Source: Candidatus Neptunichlamydia sp. (GTDB lineage Bacteria; Chlamydiota; Chlamydiia; Chlamydiales; Simkaniaceae). From it: a stretch of DNA of 64,000 bases. The notes under the pieces were generated by a model. The model was not told the origin of the DNA. It ran no database searches and saw nothing but the letters and a program-made list of their open reading frames with translations. Made by a program: the position numbers and the translations under genes. Below are positions 24,304 to 27,200 of this stretch, in pieces. How positions within the stretch are numbered: position 1 is the first letter of the stretch; every line of letters starts with the position of its first letter. The stretch covers positions 672,001 to 736,000 of the forward strand of contig OZ247587.1 in assembly GCA_965233865.1 (NCBI GenBank). Direction: 5' to 3'.

Positions 24304-25418
24304 TTAAATTTTAATCTTAAGATAAATCCAATTCGAAAGCTTTGGAAAAACAGAAGAATGATGCTTACCAAAATTTATCTTTTCATAAACTTTATCTCCG
24401 TTAATTTTTTGCCCTTGATAATCATAGTTTATCCCATAGATTGCAGCAGCATCAATATCCTCAAAAATTTCATTGCATGAAGGACAGAGTGATGTAGCGC
24501 AAATTTTATTCAGGTTGATGTTCCCTGTCCCTTTATGTATCCAAAGTCTTTTAGGGAAATTTTGGCACTCAATGTGTTGACAACGCCCTAATATATATAG
24601 TCCTAATTTATATTCTTTTGGAAAATTATTTCTTTCTCTGTCTTCTGAATCTAATGATTCTTCGTCTGTTGAACCATCGAAGTAATTACAAGTCCTTTGG
24701 TAGCACTCTACCTGTCTAATTTGATGTTTTTTTTCAGAGTGTCTGCTAAGCTCTTGAGCAGTATCAAAGGTAATTTTTGCTTCTTTTTGAAATATAAACT
24801 CTCTAAGGCCTTGGTCTGTTATGGAAGCCTTTTCCATCCTTTTCGTTTGCAAGTGTGTATAACCAGGATATCTTCTAGCGCCAAACCATCGCTTTTTTAA
24901 AAGGGTGTAACCAGAAAGAGCAGCTGCTTGAACAATATTGTAAGCATATCCTTGGTAAAAAGCATTTTTTTGACCAGGTTGTATTAGTGTTATATGAATA
25001 CAATCACTATCTCGTTGGATTTTTCTGCAAGAGCTAAAAAAATCCCTAATAATTTCTGGAAGAGTTTAGCCTTTTAGGTCTTGCCCGTCATGAGGGCAAT
25101 TCCAGTAAATTCTAAAAAATACATACATTTAAATTGTTGATAGTGATGGAGTTTTGTGCCATCAACCCCCAGGACAACTTTTACGCCATTTGCTGCCAAT
25201 TTCTTAATATTACACAAAATCCTTGGATGCTAAAGGTCTCTATATGCCTTAATTTCTGTTGCAATAATCGAGTACCTAAGGAACCCTTGACTAGATTTTT
25301 CAAGCTGTTTTTGAACAAAAGATAATCCGTAAGAAAAATCCCCCTCTCCGATAAACAGCCTGGTTTTAGCGGTATTATTATAAAAAACATTGGAAATTCT
25401 ATAAAACTCTATAGACAT
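24304..25418 (-). pseudogene. DUF2431/Bmt5-like SAM methyltransferase fused to a Cys-rich domain, disrupted
   Basis: Reconstructed motifs LFIGEGDFSY, NIKKLAANGVKVVLGVDGTKLH, RIYWNCPHDG, RRYPGYTH, then GLYILGRCQHIEC...CPSC. Stops at 25230 and 25066 and one frameshift near 25115. Confidence 0.75.
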
Positions 25419-25502
25419 TTTAAGGAACCTTTTACTAGAGATTGAAATCAGAATTAATAGTGCACTCTAAATAAACCCATTGATCCAAATTATGAAAAAA
25501 AT

Positions 25503-26281
25503 TCTTGCTTCACAACAGACCTTATTTAAATTCAAGTAAGCTCCCCTTTGTGTGTCCAGATAGGTTTATTGCCTATATTACATTCTGCATTTTTGCAAGC
25601 AGCCAGTACATATAGCCCAGTACAGCGCAGAGAGCTTATGATAAGCATCTCTATAAATTGAGACATCTTGTAGAAAATGCTTTTTTACATTTGAAGCGAT
25701 GGAGAGGAATTGCTACACGCTATGCTAAGCACACATCTTCTTTCTTGGCTGCGGTTCAGATCAGATGTTTGGCTTTATGGGTAGAAATCTCGTGACTACA
25801 CTATCTAGGAGCTCTGCTATCAAAATCTATAAACTCTGAGCATTCTAAATCAACAAATGAGAGTGTTGCCATGGTTCCACCCCTTAATCTAGGATTCATT
25901 TGAATAGTGCTATCAGGCATGATGTTGTAACTGGCGAAGAGTTGCAAAAAGCTTCCTAGAAGAAGACAAATAGTGGGAATTGGAAGGAATGCCTGTTTTT
26001 TAAAAAGTAAGCTCTTTTATCTCTCCTATTTTTGTCTTACCCCTTTTTTCTAGATCCAAAGAAAGCGTTCTTTCCACGGTTTTCATGAAAATTTTAAATG
26101 AAGGTCTCCTTGATAAGGAGTCATTATTATTGGTTTCCTCAACATAAGAAACGTTCCTATTCCTGGGAGTTAAAAAACTATATAATCCCGGTTCTTGCGG
26201 AGGATATTTCCCATAATTGTCATTTGGTCTATACTCCATAGATCTTCCCATAGGAAAAGAGATCTTGTTTATAGAGTTCAT
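25503..26281 (-). pseudogene. Ubiquitin-like domain (RLRGG) plus Cys-rich domain gene, disrupted by IS5, stop and frameshifts
   Basis: FKIFMKTVERTLSLDL...IGEIKELTF*KTGIPSNSHYL / ASYNIMPDSTIQMNPRLRGG (25876-25890)...FDSRAP, then the IS, then GLYVLAACKNAECN...WTHKG / LNLNKVCC. Confidence 0.75.
25618..25808 (+). mobile_element. IS5-family 3' remnant
   Basis: AYDKHLYKLRHLVENAFLHLKRWRGIATRYAKHTSSFLAAVQIRCLALW*, followed by ACTACACTATCTAG ending in a CTAG target-type sequence. Confidence 0.85.
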
Positions 26282-26419
26282 AAGCTCCCCTTTTAAGTTA
26301 AGTCGAACGGATGTTCTAAATCATGATGATTTATTTTCCAATTTTTTTTTGATATATATATCGTTTTGCCCCCTCTTACAGCAGCTAAGGCTAATATAAA
26401 TTTAAGACCAGATGAATAT

Positions 26420-26633: not shown

Positions 26634-27200
26634 ATGGTTGATATCCATCCAATCCCAGATTCTGAGATGCCCGGAACAACACCAAAGGCTAGCGCCTCAA
26701 ACTTTCAAAGTGAAGCGTTTGGAGATAAGGCTAACGCCTTCTATTCCTGGTATCAGTCAATCCGTCAGCCAAATTCTCCAGTCGAGGGATACCATGGATT
26801 GCAATATATTATGAATATATCTGAGCAAGAAACTGCAACTAAAGAGGAAGGAACCCTCGCTGCTGAAAAACTCAGTCAATTAATGGAAGAGATCGATGAA
26901 GGAACCCAAACCCTCGACAAAATTCCTCATGAAGTAGAAAAGATCGTCGACAGTCTCATTAACCAAAATGCAAAGAGCCGAATCGTGATGCAAGCAACTA
27001 AAATCCAGATTTCTGTCAATCTTTCCGAATCTAATACACCTGAAGAAATCCATCAGGTAATAAACTCTCTTCTTGGAAGAGTCACAAAGGAGATGCCACA
27101 TATTAAGGCTGAAGAAATTAGCCGCACTCTTCAGGATGCTATTGACCATCCAGAAGGGTCTAAGAGTCTTCTGCAGAAGGTTCTGTCACTCTTGAATTAA
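26634..27200 (+). CDS. Hypothetical protein, possible T3SS substrate
   Basis: AAGGGGGA SD; Pro/Ser/Thr-rich disordered N-terminus followed by a helical body. Confidence 0.7.
   Translation: MVDIHPIPDSEMPGTTPKASASNFQSEAFGDKANAFYSWYQSIRQPNSPVEGYHGLQYIMNISEQETATKEEGTLAAEKLSQLMEEIDEGTQTLDKIPHEVEKIVDSLINQNAKSRIVMQATKIQISVNLSESNTPEEIHQVINSLLGRVTKEMPHIKAEEISRTLQDAIDHPEGSKSLLQKVLSLLN

Follow-up and report, generated by a model that had tools for sequence, protein, structure and literature searches.

The minus strand of a 64,000-nucleotide stretch of the genome of Candidatus Neptunichlamydia sp. (Chlamydiota; Simkaniaceae), here called the window, carries one broken gene between position 26281 and approximately position 25448. 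The window covers positions 672001–736000 of a single-contig 1.83-Mb genome. The gene is composed of an N-terminal stretch of 61 amino acids (aa), a ubiquitin-like domain (Ubl) ending in RLRGG, a linker (FVD...AP) and the beginning of a Cys-rich domain, in this order. A first-pass annotation, made from the letters of the window alone, had described the locus as a hidden ubiquitin-like gene, presumed to encode a precursor and split by an insertion sequence (IS) of the IS5 family. All peptides quoted in it are present on the minus strand, and alignments to a family profile and to a ubiquitin-only profile agree with its succession of a ubiquitin-like domain ending in RLRGG and a Cys-containing domain. 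A working precursor is not what we found: the gene is a multiply broken pseudogene with a stop codon, a frameshift, an IS remnant accompanied by a deletion, later stops and a lost CPxC pair.

The coding sequence is distributed over three registers. In frame A, an open reading frame (ORF; 26000–26281) opens at the ATG at 26281 and is 93 aa long; it includes 61 low-complexity residues followed by FKIFMKTVERTLSLDLEKRGKTKIGEIKELTF and ends with the TAA at 26000–26002, beyond which the same frame reads KTGIPSNSHYLSSSRKLF. The N-terminal two thirds of the Ubl (FKIFMKT...KTGIPSNSHYLSSSRK; 25952–26098) belong to this frame, contain the in-frame TAA and align to positions 1 to ~48 of the ubiquitin profile. 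In the relatives, the position of this stop codon is occupied by an ordinary residue. Frame B (+1) reads ...ASYNIMPDSTIQMNPRLRGGTMATLSFVDLECSEFIDFDSRAP and extends to 25807. It provides the C-terminal third of the Ubl (...ASYNIMPDSTIQMNPRLRGG; 25876–25950), which matches the profiles and ends with RLRGG at 25876–25890, the C-terminal (L)RGG tail of the ubiquitin family. The transition from frame A to frame B is a +1 frameshift located at 25949–25967, where an A5/T5 run occupies 25956–25960. Among 24 join positions scored, those across 25949–25967 gave flat values of 59.4–61.3 bits, and the exact site cannot be fixed.

The Ubl is followed by a linker (TMATLSFVDLECSEFIDFDSRAP; 25807–25875) that is typical for the family by comparison with relatives and retains the conserved FVD and AP motifs. 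Past 177 base pairs (bp) of unrelated DNA, a third register reads RCTGLYVLAACKNAECNIGNKPIWTHKGELT (25535–25627) and then reaches a stop codon at 25532–25534. This segment is the beginning of a four-Cys C-terminal domain (E 6.9e-4 to the domain profile A1) and contains only the first Cys pair. The complete domain, of about 110 aa, has four invariant cysteines (C-x4-C ... C-P-x-C); at the locus only profile positions 8–36 are matched. Its continuation (25448–25534) is decayed: the stretch is 31% identical to residues 83–146 of the neighbouring paralog, contains two TGA and three TAA codons, and its CPxC pair is unrecognisable.

To compare the locus with intact proteins, a family profile was built from the last ubiquitin, the linker and the domain of 34 intact relatives. 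It was run against every six-frame ORF of the genome with a length of 20 aa or more (53,320 in total). The best-scoring three were the neighbouring paralog (E 8.8e-18), the ORF at 25804–26016 (E 1.5e-7) and the ORF at 25535–25684 (E 0.33), and these three matches are collinear. A read-through sequence with X placed at each of the three breaks (stop, frameshift and IS) gave one continuous alignment to the family profile (positions 2–131, 61 bits, E 3e-16), and the best of 1000 shuffled controls scored 4.4 bits. The first-pass annotation had suggested excision of the IS, repair of the frame and a ubiquitin profile search. Excision by itself leaves the frame broken, but the X-joined read-through matched a profile made from the ubiquitin domains of the same 34 relatives over positions 1–76 (32 bits, E 2e-7 over the 53,320 ORFs). 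A plain tblastn search of the window with an intact 313-aa protein from the same genus also yielded collinear matches, the Ubl end with the linker having E 7e-5.

Several observations weigh against this reading of the locus. The Pfam ubiquitin model gave no match at E<=10 to the separate pieces, which are fragments only, including the first piece read through with the TAA as X; nor did PF00240 give any match at E<=10 over the six-frame genome. By itself, the N-terminal half of the Ubl falls short of significance, and the piece beyond the IS taken alone has E 0.33. There is no close intact ortholog among the relatives found, of which the best are ~31–39% identical. The ancestral architecture at the locus, with one Ubl or two, is inferred, because such an ortholog is missing and the related gene pair in the same genus lies at a different chromosomal place. 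In addition, the Pfam scan of separate pieces found no family even with the stop as X, and a search of 61 related genomes with the 93-aa piece gave only chance-level rows (E>=0.07). The lack of Pfam matches to the pieces could suggest that the ubiquitin likeness arose by chance in AT-rich non-coding DNA. We consider this practically negligible in view of the read-through E of 3e-16 against shuffles of at most 4.4 bits, the pieces being collinear top matches genome-wide, and the tblastn match to the protein from the same genus.

The DNA that interrupts the gene is derived from an IS5-family element. The remnant (25629–25805, plus strand) is the 177-bp right end, IS positions ~673–849 of ~850, and encodes only the C-terminal end of the transposase (98.9% identity over 179 bp, to IS positions ~673–851). 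The segment 25629–25807 matches 18 other places in the genome at 96–100% identity; 26 matching stretches were found genome-wide, nine of them at least 800 bp long. Full copies elsewhere in the genome are ~850 bp long and have inverted ends, GATAGTGTAG... and ...CTACACTATC, a TA duplication inside YTAR and two overlapping ORFs. These ORFs match NF033580 with 113.9 and 136.2 bits, against a curated cut-off of 110, and also DUF4096 and DDE_Tnp_1. The full copies thus have the DDE transposase, the terminal inverted repeats and the short target duplication of the IS5 family; the subgroup is presumably IS427/IS1031-like. Compared with IS5-family elements that have two overlapping ORFs, the element is alike in its length of ~850 bp, inverted ends and TA duplication at YTAR, whereas the window keeps only the last 177 bp. 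The element is itself decaying: no more than nine of the 26 stretches reach 800 bp, and the copy at L002:830-1680 has stops and frame changes in its transposase.

The initial assignment of the break to an IS5-family end at a CTAG-type target therefore stands, as does the position of CTAG at 25805–25808, but a whole element is not present. The boundaries also differ, the first-pass annotation having placed the IS stretch at 25618–25804. Alignment of the IS ends and the flanks of seven other copies identified TA at 25806–25807 as the duplicated target and the C of CTAG as the final base of the IS. At the left junction (25628/25629), an internal IS position directly abuts gene sequence; therefore, a deletion after the insertion took ~670 bp of the element. 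Removal of the remnant does not restore the frame, and the codon registers require 3n+1 missing gene bases. A loss of ten bases, affecting four codons around the conserved Trp, would agree with the codon registers as well as with the spacing in relatives.

Both flanks of the IS are parts of the same gene, as had been suggested initially, because the profile alignment runs straight across the break with three profile positions skipped. The linker motif TMATLSFVDLECSEFIDFDSRAP is followed, after the break, by RCTGLYVLAACKNAEC, and the Trp of the AP.W motif is lost there. Intact relatives have about seven residues between ...AP and GL.L..C. The two flanks could instead come from different genes, a Ubl fragment and a separate Cys-domain gene joined by an IS-mediated rearrangement. 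Some rearrangement did occur, as shown by the truncation of the IS and the loss of gene bases at its left junction, and there is a second Cys-domain gene at a distance of only 700 bp. However, the position of the break coincides exactly with the junction of linker (..AP) and domain (GL.L..C) in intact proteins; about four residues are missing, the order and strand are correct, and a chance join at that register is very unlikely. A two-gene origin is accordingly highly improbable in our judgement.

We are strongly confident that the locus is a pseudogene, a decayed copy of an accessory chlamydial gene. Its ancestor very probably consisted of one or more Ubl domains ending in (L)RGG, a ~25-aa linker with FVD and AP.W motifs, and a ~110-aa all-beta domain with four invariant cysteines. 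Relative to intact homologs, the disabling lesions are the TAA within the beta-grasp, the +1 frameshift, the IS remnant with its out-of-frame deletion, and further stops from 25534 downward; the C-terminal domain also lacks its second Cys pair. We file the locus as a pseudogene of the family, and not as a member in working order, because only domain positions 8–36 match, five stops lie past 25534 and there is no CPxC. Contigs from three public sequencing runs of one study show no differences or indels over 25780–26400 and 25300–25656; they carry the same TAA at 26000–26002 and no indel variants in the frameshift zone. Since the run contigs reproduce both stretches exactly, the lesions are not polishing errors. 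A point on the other side is that the assembly may have been made from these very runs, which would then not be independent.

The gene suffered a nonsense mutation and a +1 frameshift, and an IS5-family element inserted into the linker at a YTAR site. A subsequent deletion took away ~670 bp of the element and, with it, 3n+1 bases of the gene, after which the remainder of the C-terminal domain decayed. One could argue that the locus still works, either through expression of the 93-aa and 48-aa pieces or through stop read-through and +1 frameshifting that yield a Ubl ending in RLRGG; the first piece does have an ATG and 93 open codons, and a T5 run lies on the coding strand in the frameshift zone. 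This is very hard to reconcile with three independent kinds of lesion within ~500 bp and at least five more stops downstream. Because the stop falls within the beta-grasp, a Ubl fold is out of reach for either piece; beyond the IS, the domain lacks its second Cys pair, and PF00240 finds no match. A working locus is thus extremely improbable. Taken alone, the pseudogene documents gene decay in an IS-rich symbiont genome, and this decay is ordinary.

The N-terminal stretch of 61 aa (MNSINK...SRRPS; 26099–26281, minus strand) has no family signal. A disordered leader of ~60 aa had been noted initially, but nothing supports it as a feature of the family; relatives carry either a second Ubl or unrelated sequence in this region. 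The possibility that the leader is a decayed first Ubl was rejected on the score of -2.6 bits against the ubiquitin profile; a weak likeness by eye to an upstream ubiquitin end appears only in the phmmer alignment to P0058. The stretch could be a decayed upstream Ubl, or it could never have been coding.

Intact homologs, whose search had been proposed initially, do exist in chlamydiae. A genome of the same genus (G011) encodes an intact 313-aa protein with two PF00240 domains (E 1.1e-45; 153.6 bits), a KLRGG end, a linker (...FVDDAPNWRTVYPGLNLEGLCKTIDC...) and a Cys-containing C-terminal domain. The first Ubl of this protein has no GG, and no signal peptide is evident by eye at its N-terminus. 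The gene is followed by one encoding a U-box (E 2e-10) and the same domain. Positional orthology with this pair was rejected, as the G011 flanks map to 5.6–21 kb of the present genome. In another family (G053), a 365-aa protein combines two Ubl domains with the domain (PF00240, 96.1 bits); this protein and several other chlamydial copies have no GG. A second genome of the same genus (G008; L015/L030) has at a contig end a broken copy that reads ...SSDAPK, a stop at the Trp position and then RVVTKGLNLKGVC...; the stop is a TAG at the conserved Trp codon of AP.W, and another stop lies upstream. Thus, of three copies observed in the genus, two are broken.

A search of 400 chlamydial genomes detected the domain in 14 (11 of 212 genera), where it often forms tandem pairs and reaches up to 10 copies. 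Its partners in chlamydiae include ubiquitin, ankyrin repeats and PARP-like domains, two of the last scoring over the Pfam cut-off. PF00240 itself exceeds the cut-off in 28 of the 400 genomes, compared with none of 14 control genomes. The tandem pairs recur at L035/L046, L038/L047, L039/L048 and L044/L057 (G120, G139, G246 and G182); in them, a ~430-aa protein with a PARP-like part and the domain adjoins a ~335–350-aa protein in which the domain is again C-terminal and a (weak) ubiquitin domain is also present. Another genome, G251, has 14 PF00240 matches (contigs C183/C184). Its open frames of 460–475 aa, with five or six tandem ubiquitin units, resemble polyubiquitin genes in a bacterium.

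The distribution of the four-Cys domain was studied with a profile of five sequences, searched without a word index against 1.84 billion representatives. This search gave 1801 matching protein clusters at E<=1e-3 and 345 at E<=1e-10. Protein searches that used a word index retrieved nothing beyond the query or two relatives, and a search for related loci with protein P0008 gave none. Pfam annotation of 66 of the 150 listed matches placed PF00240 N-terminal to the domain in 44, a U-box/RING in three, a caspase in one and patatin with ankyrin repeats in one; 17 had nothing. No Pfam family corresponds to the domain itself in the 66 proteins scanned, NCBIfam has none, and PADLOC gave no match. One of the 44 ubiquitin-bearing proteins has a Hint domain between the ubiquitin and the four-Cys domain. 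A 371-aa protein (P0020) consists of a ubiquitin ending in RGG, a Cys-initiated Hint/intein-like domain, a linker and the four-Cys domain, and would represent a form of the fusion capable of self-splicing or self-cleavage.

By our own ubiquitin profile, 74 of the best 150 of the 1801 matches have one to three ubiquitin domains, and in 70 a ubiquitin directly precedes the domain. The adjoining ubiquitin ends with GG in 50 of these 70; the next residue is Gly in 37 and never Pro. A CaaX-like C-terminal tetrapeptide occurs in 34 of the 150 best domain matches. Among the chlamydial copies, a 394-aa protein of G182 also ends in CaaX. In the ESM Atlas, the nearest clusters are from Rotifera, Euglenozoa, Porifera (95% with ubiquitin) and Mucoromycota (ubiquitin and RING), with template-modelling (TM) scores of 0.82–0.90 over the domain. 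These clusters are from eukaryotes, and the domain is therefore common to chlamydiae and eukaryotes; the split between eukaryotes and bacteria is based on the Atlas rows and the scan of chlamydial genomes.

AlphaFold models of the domain are confident and all-beta, show four invariant cysteines and have a predicted local distance difference test (pLDDT) score of 84.7 with five sequences and 91.4 with 21 sequences. Foldseek searches with two models gave no convincing match (best E 0.03 and 0.02). An exhaustive VIA-align comparison of two models returned as best hit a fucosidase C-terminal sandwich (Z 5.0 and 5.2; 3.2–3.3 Å over 77–78 residues), followed by beta-gamma-crystallins with Z under 4; all Foldseek and VIA-align matches are below the stated chance level. 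Lysenin (E 0.03) and SIAH1 (E 0.16), which appeared in a PDB sequence profile search, were judged to reflect chance or zinc-knuckle likeness. The domain follows heads of several kinds (ligase, ADP-ribosyltransferase, protease, lipase and repeat), so its role is most likely one of targeting or docking and not of catalysis.

For the intact relatives, we propose a mechanism that is read from sequence. The ancestral protein and its intact relatives would be delivered into, or made in, the eukaryotic cytosol. There, by analogy with natural ubiquitin-fusion precursors, ubiquitin-specific proteases would cut after the GG. The cut would free ubiquitin and a small domain that is probably zinc-binding, judging from its motifs; in many relatives, the CaaX motif suggests that the domain would also be prenylated and sent to membranes. 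Deubiquitinases cut ubiquitin fusions after GG unless Pro follows, as is known from the ubiquitin-fusion technique. This processing of a pro-protein is suggested because GG is kept in 50 of the 70 relatives, Pro is absent after it and CaaX ends are frequent. Cleavage by host deubiquitinases, or conjugation by the host, had been proposed initially for the gene in the window; we infer that it would apply only to the intact relatives, for which deubiquitinase cleavage is plausible.

We speculate that the intact members are a class of bacterial pro-effectors, hitherto undescribed, that was copied from a eukaryotic family. Their one to three genuine ubiquitins would be clipped by host deubiquitinases, giving free ubiquitin and an unmasked zinc-binding, often prenylated beta domain. 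This domain, whose fold has no solved relative, would serve as a common address module: in chlamydiae as well as in rotifers, sponges, euglenozoans and mucoromycete fungi, it would also bring U-box, PARP-like, ankyrin, caspase and patatin heads to one and the same target in the host. The proposal in this full form is tentative, and we would sooner doubt it than rely on it. Two considerations count against the processing mechanism itself: tightly folded ubiquitin hinders type III export, and GG is absent in 20 of the 70 relatives with ubiquitin next to the domain, so cleavage is no general rule.

The same 20 relatives could point to a different role, in which the Ubl of the intact family remains uncut and acts in cis as a docking tag for the proteasome or ubiquitin-binding proteins, similar to the Rad23/Dsk2-type UBL, or as a decoy. 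The G053 protein, several chlamydial copies and the first Ubl of the G011 protein, all lacking GG, are in line with such a role. However, GG kept in 50 of 70 relatives with Pro never next is the pattern expected under selection for cleavage, and (L)RGG is present in the window copy and in both copies from the same genus. An uncut Ubl is possible, in our opinion, but on the unlikely side. If the processing model is true, it would be a simple new route by which an intracellular bacterium activates an effector through host deubiquitinases, and a handle on an unstudied eukaryotic domain. The family behind the locus is moderately interesting, unlike the locus itself, whose value is that of a pointer to eukaryote-type ubiquitin in chlamydiae, where it is often joined through a GG end to an uncharacterised domain.

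The closest known parallels are the ubiquitin precursors UBA52 (ubiquitin-eL40), RPS27A (ubiquitin-eS31) and polyubiquitin, in which an RGG-ended ubiquitin is likewise found head to tail with a small Cys-rich, presumably zinc-binding protein. Similar to the polyubiquitin and ubiquitin precursors, intact relatives have one to three tandem ubiquitin units, and the residue after GG is never Pro. The synthesis of eS31 as a ubiquitin fusion is described in PMC5027506. In contrast to the ubiquitin-ribosomal precursors, the extension in this family is an unrelated ~110-aa all-beta domain with a ~25-aa linker and not a ribosomal protein, it occurs in bacterial genomes, and it is also fused to U-box, PARP, ankyrin, caspase and patatin.

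BfUbb of Bacteroides fragilis is similar in being a bacterial gene of the eukaryotic ubiquitin family that was presumably transferred, as outlined in PMC5705921 and PMC11467351. According to the same papers, it is a secreted antibacterial protein that targets the periplasmic peptidyl-prolyl isomerase (PPIase) of rival Bacteroides (PMC5705921, PMC11467351). As described there, BfUbb is stand-alone, whereas the present family has GG and an extension domain, belongs to obligate intracellular bacteria and shows no sign of an antibacterial role.

The ubiquitin-system effectors of chlamydiae and Legionella (F-box, U-box/RING, BTB and CaaX-prenylated proteins) are comparable as patchy, expanded, eukaryote-derived accessory genes of amoeba-associated bacteria. 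Some effectors of Legionella are known to be prenylated. The U-box gene next to the 313-aa gene and the CaaX-like ends of 34 of the 150 matches add to this similarity. The difference is that here the bacterium encodes ubiquitin itself and not a ligase adaptor. Chlamydial expansions of F-box, BTB and RING/U-box proteins are reported by Domman et al. 2014 (PMC4209131), in whose text 'ubiquitin-like' or 'ubiquitin domain' does not occur. A literature search, in which supplements were excluded and which is not proof of absence, found no description of chlamydial ubiquitin-fusion genes or of the four-Cys domain.

The pseudogene lies in a region (24.2–26.6 kb) with a GC content of 31–38%, compared with 40–45% in the flanks. 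This low-GC stretch is bordered by miaA and a STAS gene on one side and by typA/bipA and trkH on the other. It includes an open 182-aa gene (24304–24852, minus strand) that encodes an unassigned N-terminus and a complete four-Cys domain (E 4.7e-45 to the domain profile A1). Its product is 36% identical over 126 aa to the C-terminal part of the G011 U-box protein, and the gene is the counterpart of the U-box and domain gene that follows the Ubl gene in that genome. No U-box remnant was found upstream of 24304–24852, where the only match was 13 aa long and on the wrong strand (E 0.56). The 182-aa gene may be a truncated survivor.

Beside the relic, a 188-aa ORF (26634–27200, plus strand) has no family over the cut-off and a weak match to ELMO_ARM (E 3.4e-3); it may be a further accessory gene of the low-GC stretch. 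A second pseudogene (25074–25418, minus strand) separates the Ubl relic from the 182-aa gene. It is similar to BMT5, a eukaryote-type family of ribosomal RNA uridine-N3 methyltransferases, and is divided between two frames, with profile positions 1–35 at 25230–25418 (E 2.1e-4) and positions 47–76 at 25074–25217 (E 5.2e-3).

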